Source: a virus. From it: a DNA stretch of 64,000 nucleotides. Position numbers and translations under genes: made by a program. Position 1 is the stretch's first letter. Each line of letters opens with the position of its first letter. Shown here piece by piece: positions 14,433 to 33,536 of this stretch. The DNA is taken from positions 1 through 64,000 of IMG/VR virus record IMGVR_UViG_3300017917_002795; one strand, written 5' to 3'. Below the pieces are notes generated by a model. That model had not been told where the DNA came from. It did not search any database and was given only the letters and a program-made list of their open reading frames with translations.

Positions 14433-14797
14433 TTTTTAGAGCATTTTTAGAAGAATCCTGGTGTTATTTTTAGACTCGTTTTAGATGCATACGCTGCGCG
14501 TATATTCGGATGATTCCTAGTTTTAGTGCGATCACTAGCTATACGGAGTAAACCAGGACCTGCACTTTTGAGCCGTATACGGTGGTTTTGGTGGTTTTGC
14601 TAGCTATACGGAGTACTCTGATCTGGCTATTTTTAGGGGAGTTTTAGCAGAATACGTTGTGATTTTTAGAATTCCGGCTATTTTTAGACTCGTTTTAGCA
14701 GAATCTGGTGCTTATTTTTAGGCAAGTTTTAGTCCTATTTTTAGCAGAATCGCCGTTTTAGGCGTGGTTTCTTTTGGTTTGCTAGCTATACGGAGTA
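14433..14797. repeat. Non-coding repeat region: about 14 TTTTAG, many spaced 11-12 bp, plus three CTAGCTATACGGAGTA
   Basis: 16-mers at 14535, 14600 and 14782; TTTTAGCAGAAT x3; TTTTTAGACTCGTTTTAG x2. Confidence 0.85.
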
Positions 14798-14865
14798 AAC
14801 GTTTTCGGCGTTCCGGTTGGATTCTACCAGGAGATTTCATAATATATAGATGTAAATAAGACGAT

Positions 14866-14943
14866 ATGATCATAACCGGCATTGTATTTGGAGTAGCAGT
14901 AGCATTGGTGCTTCATTACCTGGATAATAAATTTAGATTTTAA
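14866..14943 (+). CDS. 25-aa hydrophobic peptide MIITGIVFGVAVALVLHYLDNKFRF
   Basis: Directly after promoter 14817-14847 and leader AAATAAGACGAT. Confidence 0.55.
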   Translation: MIITGIVFGVAVALVLHYLDNKFRF

Positions 14944-14945
14944 AC

Positions 14946-15129
14946 GAAGGGATCCGTGCCAGTGCAGGACCTTCACTCAATAGATGGGATCACGACCACA
15001 GGATGCTGCCGGCACTCCGAACACTGTGGTCCCATCAGGATATTTTCACAGAGCCTAGTTTCTCTCTCTTATTTCTAGGCCACCAAGCACCCGGGTTTCT
15101 CTCTCTTATTTCCCGGGTGCTTTTCTTTT
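14946..15129 (+). ncRNA. Structured RNA with twin hairpins carrying identical loops (candidate antisense regulator)
   Basis: Four hairpins; the last two share loop TTTCTCTCTCTTATTT; final stem is followed by a T-rich tail. Confidence 0.65.
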
Positions 15130-15232
15130 ATACACGAAAAATTGTGAATAACTTTTTTTAAACTTTTTCGCGAAAAGATTAGGATCGCATTATTTTTTTG
15201 CTTATCTTTAAGTATATAAAAAAATAAGAGAT

Positions 15233-15388
15233 ATGTATAGTTTGAATTGTGATTATTACACAGCAGAGTTTCCGACGCTAGGAGACCTTATCGCCCACAT
15301 TATGATTTCCGGGATGGATCCGAATTATGAGATCACTCGCAATGGCAAAGGCACGGGAGAAATGGCAATAGACTTTGTTGAATTTTAA
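15233..15388 (+). CDS. Small hypothetical protein (51 aa, MYSLNCDYY...)
   Basis: Read by hand behind cassette promoter and leader. Confidence 0.7.
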   Translation: MYSLNCDYYTAEFPTLGDLIAHIMISGMDPNYEITRNGKGTGEMAIDFVEF

Positions 15389-15752: not shown

Positions 15753-15769
15753 ACATAAAAATAAGGGAC

Positions 15770-15970
15770 ATGAAATTTAACGTAGGAGATGAAGTAGTAA
15801 TCATGAATTCGGATTGGAAAAATGCTAACTATTCCGGGGACACAGGAATTATCACGGAAATAGATCCTAGAGATGGCGATTGCCGAGTTCAGGTTGAAGG
15901 ACGCGCGAAAATAGGGAATTGGTGTCCGCAATCCGATTTAAAATTAATTCACGATAAAAAACAAGCATAA
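15770..15970 (+). CDS. Small KOW/SH3-like beta-barrel protein
   Basis: MKFNVGDEVVI...GDTGIITEID pattern. Confidence 0.7.
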   Translation: MKFNVGDEVVIMNSDWKNANYSGDTGIITEIDPRDGDCRVQVEGRAKIGNWCPQSDLKLIHDKKQA

Positions 15971-16206: not shown

Positions 16207-16288
16207 ACATTTTTTGAAAAAAGTTTCAAAAAGATTAGGATCCGAACAAAATTATTATTATCTTTATATAAATAAAAAAATAAGAGAT

Positions 16289-16504
16289 ATGAAAAAAGAA
16301 AGAGAATTTAAAGTTGACATTACATTAGCCGCAGATTTTGCATTATTTTTGGAAACCTTGCTTGAAGCTGAGTTTAATGAGGAATTTGATGCTGAGGAGC
16401 CGGTAACAGACACATTCCTGGATTACTATATCCCAAACGGGATCGTGCCGGCGCAAGATTTAATTAATGCATTATTAGCATCTGGCATTGTAAAAAAAGT
16501 TTAA
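16289..16504 (+). CDS. Acidic hypothetical pre-early protein
   Basis: ATG after AAATAAGAGAT leader. Confidence 0.75.
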   Translation: MKKEREFKVDITLAADFALFLETLLEAEFNEEFDAEEPVTDTFLDYYIPNGIVPAQDLINALLASGIVKKV

Positions 16505-16577
16505 AAAAGTTTGCAAAAGATTAGGATCGCATTGATTTTTTCATTAAATTTATATTATTAATTAAAAAATAAGAGAT

Positions 16578-16829
16578 ATGTCATTTTCAGAAGCAAACAA
16601 AAAGGTTCACAAAGTAGAAGCGCAGTGGCACTATGAGACCATGATAAGTTACGGGTTTACTCCGATTGATAAGGAGGGAATAGGATTCGTTAGAAGTTAT
16701 AGGTATTCTAAAGGGGATAGAATAATCACGTGCAACACAGGGGCATCTGCAGATTATTGGAAGGATGAGACCACAAGGGCTGGAGGATTCTGGGCTTCAC
16801 TTAAGGAATATGTATCTAAAATAGTTTAA
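16578..16829 (+). CDS. Hypothetical pre-early protein
   Basis: Cassette promoter and leader. Confidence 0.75.
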   Translation: MSFSEANKKVHKVEAQWHYETMISYGFTPIDKEGIGFVRSYRYSKGDRIITCNTGASADYWKDETTRAGGFWASLKEYVSKIV

Positions 16830-17683: not shown

Positions 17684-17784
17684 CAAAAAAGTTTAAAAAA
17701 GTTTGCAAAAGATTAGGATCCTATCCGTATTTTCCTTATCTTTATGTATAGTAATTAAGAGTTATAAACCTAAAAAAGAGAGAA

Positions 17785-18525
17785 ATGGCAAAAAGAATCA
17801 ATGTAAGCAATGGCGTAATCATCACAGATACAGCAAGTATCCGTCAGTATGTGAAAGAAACCAAGAAACCGGCAACATTCAGTCTAGCTGAAGAAAAGAC
17901 GTTGTTAACCGCAGCACAATCCGGTGACCTCCAAGCACGAGACACAATCATCCGAGCCAACCTTCGCTTTGTGATTCAAGTAGCACGAAGCTTCCAGGGA
18001 ATGGGATTGGAATTGGAGGATCTCATTGCATTTGGTAATGTAGGTTTGTTTGAGGCTGTGGATCGTTATGATGCTGCAAAGGATTTCAAATTCATTACGT
18101 TTGCTGTGTGGTATGTGCGCGCTGAGATTCAAAAGGCACTCAATGACCTATCCCGCGTAGTTAGGATCCCTTCCCATAAGACTACCACAGAAACCCAAAG
18201 CATTAAAAGCATACACGCTCCGGTAGGTGAAGACGAAAACAAAGAGACATATGCAGATCGTTTCCTAGAAGCCGAGTCCGGTAAATCACAGCGCGACATC
18301 AATGACCTTCGCTTTGACTTGCACCGAGCATTGAATCAGCTGCCAGAGAAGCAAAGAGAAGCTGTGACACGCTTTTATGGTATTGATAGGGAATATGCTC
18401 AGTGCATGGAACAAATTGCTGAGGAGCTTAATATAACGGGAGAGCGTGCAAGACAATTAGTTAGAATGGCTGAGATGTCTTTGAGAGCTATGCCGGGTAT
18501 TAAATTGCTTGAGCAATATTTGTGA
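17785..18525 (+). CDS. Phage RNA polymerase sigma-70 family factor (RpoD/SigA-like)
   Basis: ANLRFVIQVA, DLIAFGNVGLFEAVDRYD, KFITFAVWYVR; region 4 IAEELNITGERARQ. Confidence 0.93.
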   Translation: MAKRINVSNGVIITDTASIRQYVKETKKPATFSLAEEKTLLTAAQSGDLQARDTIIRANLRFVIQVARSFQGMGLELEDLIAFGNVGLFEAVDRYDAAKDFKFITFAVWYVRAEIQKALNDLSRVVRIPSHKTTTETQSIKSIHAPVGEDENKETYADRFLEAESGKSQRDINDLRFDLHRALNQLPEKQREAVTRFYGIDREYAQCMEQIAEELNITGERARQLVRMAEMSLRAMPGIKLLEQYL

Positions 18526-18931: not shown

Positions 18932-19016
18932 AAAAAAGTTTAAACATTTCTGGAAAAAGATTAGGATCGCATTATTATTTTGCTTATCTTTATATTATAA
19001 ATAAAAAATAAGAGAT

Positions 19017-19259
19017 ATGAAAAATTTAACGATTAACGATTGGGACCTAGTAGAAAATGCGAAAACCTTCTTTAAAGGAGACGCTGACTTAGCACAAGAT
19101 TGGCTAGAAATGTTTTCAGATTTCGGAGACGTTCCGTTGTCGGAATTAGTTGAGCCAGCTGCCGAGTTTGCAATTGAGAACGAATTACCGTTCCGGGTAT
19201 TAGACGCGATAGATCAAAATGAGGACGGCGAAGTAACTTGGATTATAGAAATGCAGTAA
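19017..19259 (+). CDS. Highly acidic pre-early protein
   Basis: Cassette promoter; D/E-rich. Confidence 0.8.
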   Translation: MKNLTINDWDLVENAKTFFKGDADLAQDWLEMFSDFGDVPLSELVEPAAEFAIENELPFRVLDAIDQNEDGEVTWIIEMQ

Positions 19260-19337
19260 AAAAGTTGGAAAAAAGTTTGCGGATCGGTAGGTTCGCATTC
19301 TTTTTTTCCTTATCTTTATAGTATAAAATTAAGAGAG

Positions 19338-19424
19338 ATGAAAGACACCGCAAGCACGTTAATTTACCTGAGTTTTTTACTCAATGTAGTTTTAATCCTT
19401 AAATGTTTAACCCGTAAAAAATAA
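19338..19424 (+). CDS. 28-aa membrane peptide MKDTASTLIYLSFLLNVVLILKCLTRKK
   Basis: Behind cassette promoter 19288. Confidence 0.55.
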   Translation: MKDTASTLIYLSFLLNVVLILKCLTRKK

Positions 19425-19429
19425 GAGAC

Positions 19430-19522
19430 ATGAATCCACAAACACAAGAAGAATTCGAAATGATGGTAACACAGATTACCCTGGCAGTTGAGGCAGTGAT
19501 ATTATCCACGATCCGCAGCTAA
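19430..19522 (+). CDS. 30-aa peptide MNPQTQEEFEMMV...
   Basis: AAATAAGAGAC leader. Confidence 0.55.
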   Translation: MNPQTQEEFEMMVTQITLAVEAVILSTIRS

Positions 19523-19606
19523 AAAAAGTTTAAAAAAAGTTGCCAAAAAGGTTGGCACATTGAAAAAAAATCATTAAATTTATAGTATAATTAAAAAATA
19601 AGAGAT

Positions 19607-20548
19607 ATGATGAGTAATGTTTTTGAGCCAGTAAGAATTAAAGGCAAATTAGTAGCAAAAAATGTAGTAACCGGAGAGATTGCAGATCCTGGATTAATCC
19701 GAGGAATTGTTATCCGCGCAGCAGAACAAGAACGCCAAGTAATGATAGTGTCGGATACAGGCCGCGTAACAAGAATGTCAATGGCAGGCACTGGCGTCAC
19801 ACCAACTCCAGGCAAAATGTCCTTTATGTCGGTTAAGCAGCAACAGGATCCACAAGAGATGTTTGAGAACATTGAACGCCTAACCAAAATGGTAGGACGA
19901 GGGATCCAACCCAGCTTAGTAGTAACTGGTGGTGCCGGAATGGGTAAGACACACTTAGTTAAACAAACCCTAGAAAGCTTAGGTCTTCAAGAGTCATATG
20001 ACTTTGTGCACTTCAAAGGACGATGCACAGCAGCAGGACTATACATAACCCTATATGAGAATTCGGATAAGATTGTTGTGTTAGATGACTGTGACTCCGT
20101 GTTCCGAGATATGGATGCAGTTAATATCCTTAAAGGTGCCTTAGACAGTTACGATTCTCGTAAAATATCTTATATAACAAGCAAAACGTTTAAAGACGAA
20201 TTTGGTATGGAGGTACCTCGTCATTTTGAATTCACCGGCAAAATTATATTCATCTCAAATATATCTCAAAGTCGTCTAGACGAAGCAATCCGAAGCCGTA
20301 GCTTTGTGGCGGATGTGGACCTGACAACGGAACAAGTATTTGCTCGTATGCATCAATTAATTGACAAAATGGAACCGCGCATTCCCATAGCAGCTAAACA
20401 GCAAGCACTCGAATTAATGAGGGAGTTAGATGCGGATTTTGATGGCATTGAAATCAACCTCAGAAGCTTTATTAAAGCAGCTCGTATATGTGCAATGGGA
20501 TTTGAGAATCCAAAAATGATGATTGCAGAACAAATTTGCTCTCAATAA
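19607..20548 (+). CDS. AAA+ ATPase
   Basis: Walker A GGAGMGKT, Walker B VVLDDCD, sensor FISN, Arg finger AIRSR. Confidence 0.9.
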   Translation: MMSNVFEPVRIKGKLVAKNVVTGEIADPGLIRGIVIRAAEQERQVMIVSDTGRVTRMSMAGTGVTPTPGKMSFMSVKQQQDPQEMFENIERLTKMVGRGIQPSLVVTGGAGMGKTHLVKQTLESLGLQESYDFVHFKGRCTAAGLYITLYENSDKIVVLDDCDSVFRDMDAVNILKGALDSYDSRKISYITSKTFKDEFGMEVPRHFEFTGKIIFISNISQSRLDEAIRSRSFVADVDLTTEQVFARMHQLIDKMEPRIPIAAKQQALELMRELDADFDGIEINLRSFIKAARICAMGFENPKMMIAEQICSQ

Positions 20549-20555
20549 TATATCT

Positions 20556-20594
20556 CGGCAGGATCCGGCATCGCAAGGTGTCGGATTTCTGCTG
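20556..20594 (+). terminator. Long GCAA-capped hairpin (terminator or processing site)
   Basis: CGGCAGGATCCGGCATC-GCAA-GGTGTCGGATTTCTGCTG; no U-tail on +. Confidence 0.5.
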
Positions 20595-20680
20595 TAAAAA
20601 AGTTGGAAAAAAGTTGCTAAAAGATTAGGTTCATGTTGATATTTTCATTATCTTTATATTATAAATAAAAAATAAGAGAT

Positions 20681-20917
20681 ATGAAAAGAGAACAAATGAT
20701 TGCCGAAATCCAAAAACAAGAAGCAGCCCTATTCTTAATGCTCAAGCAGACAGAGCGTGATTATGGAACCGATGCAAGCCTCACCACACAATTGAGAACA
20801 CGTTGGGGCACCATCATTGACTTAATGGCGGACTTAGGCATTGAGCAAGACTTCATGCTGCCAGACAGCAAACAAGCCTTAGCCATAATACTAGCAGAAC
20901 GAGACAAGGCGGCATAA
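20681..20917 (+). CDS. Hypothetical pre-early protein
   Basis: Cassette promoter and leader. Confidence 0.8.
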   Translation: MKREQMIAEIQKQEAALFLMLKQTERDYGTDASLTTQLRTRWGTIIDLMADLGIEQDFMLPDSKQALAIILAERDKAA

Positions 20918-32781: not shown

Positions 32782-32915
32782 ATTTTTTTCCTTTGTGGTT
32801 ACTTTCTTTGATATAAATATAGTAATAATGAAAAAACATTTTATTTGGATATATGAAAATATTTTCTTATATTTATAGTATAATTAATTAGTTAACCATT
32901 TAAAAATAAGAGATC

Positions 32916-33536
32916 ATGAAAAAGTTAGCATTTATTTTTGTTTTATATACAAATACATTATTTTCACAAAATATAGTAACTGATTATTATAAAGAAATTG
33001 CAGCCCACTCTGAGTATGCAAGTGATGGTATTACTTCATTTACTCCACGTACATGGAAAACAGATATAAAAATATTTGTTAAAGGTAATAAAGATTCTGT
33101 AGCCTATTCAGAATTGATTAAAGTTATCAATGAATTAAATGAATTAATTAATACCATTGAAATTAAAATTGTAGATACAGAACCAGAAGCTAACTTAATT
33201 GTTTTCTTCGGTTGGTTTATAGATTATGAAAAAATTGATCCAAATGTTGCACCGTATACAGCAGAAAATTATGGTTTAGCTGCTATATATCACGGTGAAA
33301 ATAATAATTGGATCCGCGGGTCATTTTATGTTGATGTTGTAAGGTGTGAATGGTTACCAAAAGATCGAGCTGAATTATTAAAACGTCATGCTGTACGTGA
33401 AGAACTTACGCAATCATTAGGTTTAATGAATGATTCAATGAAGTATCCTGATAGTATTTTTTATCAAGAATGGTCATTAGTAACTGAATATTCAGATTTG
33501 GATAAACAAATTATAAAAATGCATTACGCATATTAA
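32916..33536 (+). CDS. DUF2927-like exported protein
   Basis: Signal peptide; REELTQSLGLMNDS...SIF. Confidence 0.8.
   Translation: MKKLAFIFVLYTNTLFSQNIVTDYYKEIAAHSEYASDGITSFTPRTWKTDIKIFVKGNKDSVAYSELIKVINELNELINTIEIKIVDTEPEANLIVFFGWFIDYEKIDPNVAPYTAENYGLAAIYHGENNNWIRGSFYVDVVRCEWLPKDRAELLKRHAVREELTQSLGLMNDSMKYPDSIFYQEWSLVTEYSDLDKQIIKMHYAY

Follow-up and report, generated by a model that had tools for sequence, protein, structure and literature searches.

A candidate anti-leader RNA with two identical loops, predicted to repress the early genes of a large uncultured phage

Introduction

Why would a phage genome carry two unrelated hairpins with the same loop, when this loop is complementary to the sequence found just before the start codons of a whole set of its own genes? 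The question was raised by a locus in a 140,594-nt (140.6-kb) IMG/VR virus contig (35% G+C, classed as linear, with an estimated completeness of ~83%), whose first 64 kb were analysed here (hereafter, the window). A preliminary description of this locus had proposed that one small RNA shuts off the translation of an entire early regulon, including a phage sigma factor. To our knowledge, a role has been assigned to very few of the small RNAs found in lytic-type phages. In Bacteroidota and their phages, translation mostly proceeds without Shine-Dalgarno pairing, and post-transcriptional control is poorly understood. We therefore describe the structure of the element, its predicted targets and its conservation, and then weigh the explanations that could account for them.

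Results

The phage and its putative host

The contig corresponds to a large uncultured phage of virulent type, whose host probably belongs to the Bacteroidota. A bS21 homologue of 81 aa is encoded outside the window, at genome positions 72795-73040 (also L182:1429-1674; Pfam, 38 bits), and in a pattern-limited genome scan its closest matches came from Bacteroidales (40-43% identity). These matches, together with the promoter style, point to Bacteroidota as host, a wider group than the genus Flavobacterium named in the preliminary description. A nucleotide search of a cultured-phage collection gave no match to the phage, and protein searches against cultured phages returned distant matches only (27-38% identity), which leaves no cultured relative as a point of reference. 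Furthermore, a Shine-Dalgarno-like motif precedes none of the 13 genes of the early-gene island, versus about one third of the genes beyond 21 kb. This distribution suggests two translation regimes, with an SD-free island and a partly SD-led remainder.

Layout and folding of the RNA element

The element would be transcribed from the + strand between positions 14850 (approximate start) and 15131, the 3' half of the transcript being a putative structured regulatory RNA that ends with a terminator (Table 1). Upstream of the homologous RNA, the related phages present a matching promoter layout (GGTTGGAT, 16-18 nt, TAT(A/T)ATATA). In the window, the promoter-like element of the RNA gene shares its -35-like box and its spacing with the early cassettes, whereas the downstream box is different; only five sites of the TTGGAT-N17-TAWTATA type were found in the genome. 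As this promoter is similar to the early ones but with another downstream box, the timing of expression is not readable from the sequence, which does not imply a delayed shut-off either.

Table 1. Coordinates of the RNA element, of its predicted target leaders and of the cis elements of relatives (window positions, unless a contig handle is given).
Feature	Position	Strand	Basis or remark
Promoter-like element of the RNA gene: TTGGAT, 17 nt, ATAATATATAG	14817..14849	+	Sequence; activity predicted
ORF of a 25-aa hydrophobic peptide, MIITGIVFGVAVALVLHYLDNKFRF	14866..14943	+	Between promoter-like box and hairpins
Hairpin 1	14946..14974	+	Minimum-energy fold
Hairpin 2, internal-loop motifs ACCACA and GAACAC	14983..15036	+	Minimum-energy fold; motif pair kept in most relatives
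Hairpin 3, 6-bp stem GCCTAG/CTAGGC	15053..15080	+	Anti-leader loop 1 at 15059-15074
Hairpin 4, 11-bp GC-rich stem AAGCACCCGGG/CCCGGGTGCTT, then U-tract	15085..15131 (hairpin 15085-15122)	+	Anti-leader loop 2 at 15096-15111
Leader AAATAAGAGAT + ATG, 51-aa gene (15233-15388)	15222..15235	+	Duplex -10.1 kcal/mol
Leader variant AAATAAGGGAC + ATG	15759..15772	+	AAATAAGGGA precedes gene 15770
Target leader + ATG	16278..16291	+	Duplex -11.3 kcal/mol
Target leader + ATG	16567..16580	+	Motif and predicted duplex
Leader AAAAGAGAGAA + ATG, sigma-70-family gene (17785-18525)	17774..17787	+	-11.5 kcal/mol, best predicted duplex of the genome
Target leader + ATG	19006..19019	+	Motif and predicted duplex
Leader ATTAAGAGAG + ATG, 27-aa hydrophobic peptide	19328..19340	+	TAAGAGAGA at 19330-19338
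Target leader + ATG, 30-aa ORF	19419..19432	+	Motif
Target leader + ATG, 313-aa P-loop ATPase	19596..19609	+	Motif and predicted duplex
Target leader + ATG	20670..20683	+	Motif and predicted duplex
Sole leader copy outside the island, 206-aa gene	32904..32918	+	Duplex -11.0 kcal/mol
Cis elements of relatives	L116:8720-8806, L122:9384-9466, L099:8176-8258, nine more		

A stretch of 189 nt folds into four hairpins at -67.4 kcal/mol (z = -4.7), and none of 200 shuffled sequences folded as well. In agreement with the preliminary description, hairpins 3 and 4 have unrelated stems and display an identical 16-nt loop, TTTCTCTCTCTTATTT (RNA: UUUCUCUCUCUUAUUU); both copies stay single-stranded when the full transcript is folded. 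The sequence directly 3' of hairpin 4 is TTTTCTTTT, with UUUUCUUUU as U-tract. Because this U-tract directly follows a GC-rich stem, hairpin 4 looks like a terminator, and it is likely an intrinsic (rho-independent) one with an unusually large 16-nt loop. It was missed by our terminator scan, which admits only loops of 3-8 nt.

The two upstream hairpins are less constant. A hairpin similar to hairpin 1 (GAAGGGATC...GACCTTC) was found in L103-L105 and L109 (handles in L designate contigs). The internal-loop motifs of hairpin 2 (ACCACA on the 5' side, (G/U)AACAC on the 3' side) recur in otherwise divergent RNAs, with counterparts at L115:5165-5235 and L118:5210-5285. The sequences GTGCC (14956) and GGCAC (15011), previously seen as complementary loops, both exist but lie mostly within stems in the minimum-energy fold, and L109 keeps GGCAC without a GTGCC partner. 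The AACACCUCC sequence carried by hairpin 2 in some relatives was considered as a mimic of the 16S anti-Shine-Dalgarno and rejected, CCUCC not being conserved (the window has GAACACUG). Searches against Rfam matched no family, either with the window (E up to 1) or with L115 (E up to 5).

The loops are complementary to the leaders of a set of early genes

We then searched the genome for the complement of the loop. AAATAAGAGA is found at eight + strand sites, all located in the window (15222, 16278, 16567, 19006, 19419, 19596, 20670 and 32904), and its only occurrences on the - strand are the two loops. By chance, 0.48 occurrences would be expected, and none of 100 shuffles reached 10. The earlier suggestion that these sites are tied to start codons was borne out genome-wide: 8 out of 8 + strand sites lie 1-2 nt upstream of an ATG, and seven of them are grouped within 15.2-20.7 kb. 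The variant sites announced for the genes at 15770, 19338 and 17785 are present as well. The eight exact leaders and the three variants (15770, 19330 and 17785) thus define a set of eleven genes. In the sigma gene, whose product has Pfam sigma-70 regions 2 and 4, AGAGAGAAA (17777-17785) spans the start of the gene itself. As a side observation, the stop codon of the 27-aa hydrophobic peptide gene (19338-19421) falls inside the leader of the next gene.

These leaders are part of a shared cassette composed of an A-tract, GTTT repeats, TTAGGATCGCATT, then TTATCTTTA(A/T)RTATA and a leader of ~17 nt. The promoter cassette lies upstream of about ten of the eleven genes, the exceptions being 15770 and 19430, which directly follow the preceding gene. 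For the exact 51-aa product encoded at 15233-15388, public assemblies have 55 blocks on record, and the neighbouring early genes differ between the contigs; such varying neighbours would fit a shuffling of cassettes.

When loop duplexes were predicted for 193 gene starts (crude calls), 8 of the best 11 involved genes of the leader set (hypergeometric p = 2e-9). At -10 kcal/mol, 13 starts were retained, against a mean of 6.2 for composition-matched shuffled loops, and 7 of 300 shuffles reached 13. The predicted duplexes are short and AU-rich (-10 to -11.5 kcal/mol), and pyrimidine-rich loops generally find some purine-rich starts. Since shuffled pyrimidine loops also pair with such starts, specificity lies in which genes are targeted and not in energy alone.

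Homologous RNAs are found in related phages

For the comparison with other phages, relatives were gathered through the 313-aa ATPase of the island, which gave 11 and then ~40 IMG/VR contigs (63-82% identity). A homologous RNA was found at the equivalent position, between the TTTTAG-repeat tract and the early-gene cassettes, in ~30 related contigs, and it is present wherever a family contig extends far enough upstream. A look-up of the exact 51-aa product added ten further close relatives from other metagenomes, one of them identical to the window; an identical contig is present in run SRR5831666. In addition, a scan of IMG/VR for the loop with its closing pairs returned 14 contigs, all belonging to the family: 10 were already known through the ATPase and the other four present the same layout. 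A scan of IMG/VR with the exact 16-mer returned 90 loci, nearly all chance single matches, with only two relatives among them.

In an alignment of nine sequences (mean column identity 55%), loop 1 holds 13 of the 35 invariant columns. The stems of hairpin 3 differ across the aligned relatives (GCCTAG, CCTGG, GCGTCTGG, GGG) around a near-invariant loop. More broadly, 23 anti-leader hairpins show 12 distinct inner stems, all of them paired, with loops almost unchanged; stem positions 3-10 occur as several Watson-Crick pair types, and the ten further close relatives add new stems. This comparison was made with an anchored pair table, the MAFFT alignment having placed the stems out of register. 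A run of T after the last hairpin is present in every relative, as is a promoter-like box on the + strand.

Beyond these features, the RNA is modular: the peptide ORF occurs in some lineages only, and the 5' hairpins come and go. What is constant is at least one single-stranded segment antisense to the early leader. The twin-loop format of the window is also that of L099-L101, L104, L121, L124 and further close relatives, while a single loop lies upstream of an ordinary terminator in L102, L103, L105, L109 and L118. L115, L116 and L122 combine a single loop with a linear CAUAUCUCUC, L114 has a 29-nt loop with two anti-leader copies, and L128 presents a plain linear seed ahead of the terminator. 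Given these varied formats, the anti-leader loop does not simply follow from how the terminator is built, and from the sequences compared, only its sequence and its single-strandedness appear to be retained. No anti-leader RNA was found in L132, nor in L134-L139 (ATPase 52% identical); these contigs, with different leaders or lacking an early island, are uninformative. Within the corresponding RNA region in L114 (4020-4105), we also noted a tRNA-like stretch with a CAU anticodon, judged by eye.

The tract that precedes the RNA gene, made of TTTTAG repeats with copies of GCTAGCTATACGGAGTA, is located at 14500-14800 in the window, and the same kind of tract was seen at L115:4600-5010, L128:3900-4230 and L118:5083-5130, with conserved synteny. 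From its repeats, it may be an origin or a packaging region.

Loops and leaders change together

Most phages of the family mix two leader types, AAUAAGAGAU and AAAGAGAGAU, and the loop UUUCUCUCUCUUAUU(U) covers both. Other leader variants (AGAUAAG, UUAAG, UAGAGA and GAGAGU) come with matching changes in the RNA. Thus, L121 and L124 have some AGAUAAGAG (AGAUAAG-type) leaders together with UUAUCU loops, but also retain AAAUAAG leaders that mismatch these loops. L126 has UAGAGAUAUG leaders and an RNA with CAUAUCUCUA, and L112 has GAGAGU leaders and ACUCUC loops. In L123, the AAAAAUUAAGAGAUAUG leaders find a 17-nt complement in the RNA, with one G-U pair. Conversely, UAAG leaders are absent from L118 and L128 and make up 1 out of 10 in L119, and the RNAs of all three lack UUAUU. 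The RNA regions of L123, L126 and L128 were located through the common CATATCTCT motif.

We quantified this correspondence in 17 phages as the longest complementary run between the 3' domain of the RNA and the island leaders, the matrix being double-centred to remove row and column effects (the raw own-versus-cross matrix is dominated by the purine-richness of the leaders and by non-island leaders that a loose promoter pattern had taken in). The mean advantage of own over cross pairs amounts to 0.61 nt, a value reached in 0 of 20,000 permutations (p = 1e-4 when G-U pairs are allowed), among sequences that are related, not independent, and with a signal coming mainly from about six lineages. 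Because most phages share one loop and one leader, the covariation rests on this handful of lineages. The comparative test suggested in the preliminary description, loops and leaders changing together while stems diverge (12 stems in 23 hairpins), hence comes out in favour of pairing.

Anti-leader segments in cis in the relatives

In many relatives, a junction between two genes is composed of a stop codon, CAUAUCUCUC, a GC-rich hairpin and the (A)GAGAGAUAUG of the next gene. A long-range stem buries the downstream start in 10 out of 12 cases, and at the junction of L116, CAUGUCUCUC stands opposite GAGAGACAUG with a two-sided compensatory change (CAUGUC/GACAUG). From its modelled fold, this cis element looks like a device for structure-based translational coupling or repression, and the junctions would be an independent sign of leader/anti-leader pairing.

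In most relatives, CAUAUCUCUCAA / CATATCTCTCAA is also found between the stop codon of the ATPase gene and its terminator hairpin (L115:10957, L116:10951, L109:7595 and others); the segment is degenerate in the window (20545-20600). Such a segment, placed 3'-terminally on an early mRNA, could serve for 5'-3' pairing or belong to a small RNA derived from the 3' UTR. We found no cis anti-leader copy in the phage of the window, so the twin loops are its only anti-leader elements.

Small peptides encoded beside the RNA

In the relatives, the peptide slot is occupied by single-helix peptides of 25-29 aa that fall into no fewer than four sequence families unrelated to one another; the peptides of the window, L100 and L104 have a YLD.(K/R)F motif in common. 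The peptide is conserved in type only. Single-helix membrane peptides occupying the slot beside the RNA were noted at 14866-14943 in the window and in L099-L109, L081, L128 and L123; in L128 the ORF lies downstream of the RNA. No peptide ORF was found in L115, L116, L118, L119 and L122, and all five keep the loops. In the window, the ORF and the hairpins are enclosed by one promoter-like box and one terminator; if they are carried by one transcript, the 25-aa membrane peptide and the anti-leader hairpins would make a dual-function RNA.

Discussion

The best reading of these data, to which we give somewhat more than an even chance, is that of a trans-acting anti-leader RNA repressing the translation of the early genes. 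Two stable hairpins would display the same single-stranded 16-nt loop, able to pair in trans with the 9-10 nt that immediately precede the AUG (AAAUAAGAGA or (A)AGAGAGAAA). The targets would be the very short leaders (~17 nt) of about eleven early-cassette genes, including that of the phage sigma factor. Since these SD-free genes presumably need an open A-rich start region for initiation, a duplex at this place should prevent it by blocking the binding of the 30S subunit, and would perhaps expose the mRNA to decay. In relatives, the pairing extends across the AUG. A single stable RNA with two sites could thereby damp or shut off the translation of the entire early set. We know of no RNA chaperone for such phages or hosts. 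As regards the small-RNA interpretation of the preliminary description, the specificity for the + strand, the loops as the most conserved part, the diverging stems and the loop-leader covariation stand, while transcription, action in trans, repression and timing are predictions drawn from sequence.

Action in cis only deserves attention, as the loops could pair with the 5' leader of the RNA itself (AAAUAAGA), folding back on the peptide gene, or with the first early leader on read-through transcripts. The 5' end of the RNA is indeed leader-like (AAATAAGACGAT in the window, AAATAAGAAG in several relatives), the first early leader is merely ~110 nt downstream, and anti-leader segments are clearly used in cis between genes of relatives. 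However, the loops are retained in the five relatives without the ORF, and also in L102, L103, L105 and L109, whose own leader (AAAAGGAAAUG type) is not complementary, so that fold-back on the 25-aa ORF, an alternative raised earlier, is not a conserved role. In a hok-like fold-back test, the window showed an 8-nt match to its own initiation region, lost in these same four relatives. The L118 loop is complementary to the early leaders and not to the UAAGAAGG 5' end of its own RNA, a strong terminator lies downstream in all relatives, and two loops against about eleven identical leaders fit an action in trans. We hold cis-only pairing to be unlikely. The pairing with leaders could also have a positive or neutral effect, by shielding the short 5' termini of the early transcripts from a nuclease or by sorting these mRNAs. 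The evidence from complementarity and covariation applies equally to this reading; the site is at most ~6 nt away from the inferred 5' end of the mRNA, a place at which decay that depends on this end could be blocked by a duplex, and the early-like promoter suggests co-expression. Nevertheless, the duplex abuts or covers the AUG, the anti-leader of relatives includes an anti-AUG (CAU) that is hard to square with activation, and the cis version sequesters the start codon; such an effect has a small probability in our view.

A different kind of explanation dispenses with leader pairing. As in CsrB, CU-rich loops could titrate a protein, such as S1 or an RRM/KH protein of the host or the phage, with an incidental complementarity to the leaders. 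Identical loops repeated on varied stems are also a hallmark of protein-titrating RNAs, and purine-rich starts pair to some extent with any pyrimidine-rich loop. There would, however, be little reason for a protein site to follow the leader changes of individual lineages or to reach into an anti-AUG, and the exact pairing register over 9-17 nt also argues against such a sponge, which we regard as quite improbable. Least plausible of all, and by a wide measure doubtful, is the absence of any RNA regulator, the hairpins acting as DNA (a replication or packaging site) or as a minus-strand mimic of the leaders. The element does adjoin the TTTTAG and 16-bp repeat tract resembling an origin or packaging region, and the minus strand folds as well; but every relative has its U-tract and its promoter-like box on the + strand, the A-tract that a minus-strand terminator needs ahead of the hairpins is missing, the anti-leader of L128 is linear and not a hairpin, and the leader covariation would be left unexplained. 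The minus-strand sponge that the preliminary description had offered as an alternative is likewise disfavoured, with neither promoter nor terminator on that strand. For a type I toxin-antitoxin arrangement, the search for promoter and terminator signals on the minus strand was also negative, which gives no sign of an overlapping or adjacent antisense RNA gene.

The trans-acting reading can be set beside known systems. By analogy, the design appears closest to that of Staphylococcus aureus RNAIII and of P1/P7 c4, and the purpose closest to that of T4 RegA/RegB, with homology to none of them. In S. aureus, RNAIII and the Rsa small RNAs with UCCC loops use identical pyrimidine-rich hairpin loops to block initiation on many mRNAs, and RNAIII encodes a 26-aa peptide. 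The phage RNA would similarly present several hairpins with identical loops against initiation regions and encode a peptide of 25 aa, versus 26 aa in RNAIII. Unlike RNAIII, to which it has no sequence or Rfam relationship, it is a phage RNA directed at SD-free targets that share one cassette leader, not at a generic SD, and both the regulator and all predicted targets are phage-encoded. The c4 antisense RNA of P1 and P7 is a structured phage RNA whose loops pair over a ribosome-binding site, with loop and target changes going together. The likeness lies in phage-encoded loops facing short initiation sites and in the joint change of loop and target between relatives; c4 however acts on one icd-ant operon, in temperate immunity, and is processed from the same transcript, whereas about eleven separately promoted genes are concerned here.

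In T4, two proteins, the repressor RegA and the endoribonuclease RegB, silence early mRNAs through a short motif of the initiation region. Global silencing of early mRNAs would be common to both cases, with the difference that the specificity would here come from an RNA. The post-transcriptional control exerted by RegA and RegB has been reviewed (PMC3014915). Other small RNAs are also expressed by phages, with base pairing as their proposed or demonstrated mode of action. Among them, PreS/LPR1 of lambda acts on host genes (bioRxiv 10.1101/2024.10.31.621285), and sRNA1/2 of PAK_P3 have no identified regulon, with single 11-nt matches inside phage ORFs (PMC4933390). In contrast to PreS and the PAK_P3 RNAs, the targets predicted here carry a leader common to the early genes of the phage itself. 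Our literature searches gave no description of a phage RNA complementary to a leader that several early genes of the same phage have in common. The promoter-early stem-loop cassettes of T4-type phages are repeated terminator-promoter-leader modules that flank small variable early genes. A modular spread of this kind could explain why one leader heads unrelated genes; we know of no leader-antisense RNA associated with T4-type cassettes.

The anti-leader RNA might also be one part of a two-part switch, a speculative extension that we consider rather unlikely. The RNA would silence the SD-free early leaders, with the help, in relatives, of the cis anti-leader segments (intergenic or in 3' UTRs), and the phage bS21 would favour SD-led middle and late mRNAs. 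If true, the reprogramming from early to late expression would take place largely at the ribosome, with the RNA as specificity factor for the whole regulon.

The family provides natural compensatory variants and at least three formats of seed display, which makes the hypothesis testable with reporters, and an anti-leader RNA may offer a compact design of programmable repressor for Bacteroidota. If it acts in this way, the element would be to RNAs what RegA/RegB of T4 are to proteins, and the cassette leader would serve these phages as a common address for the regulation of a set of genes.
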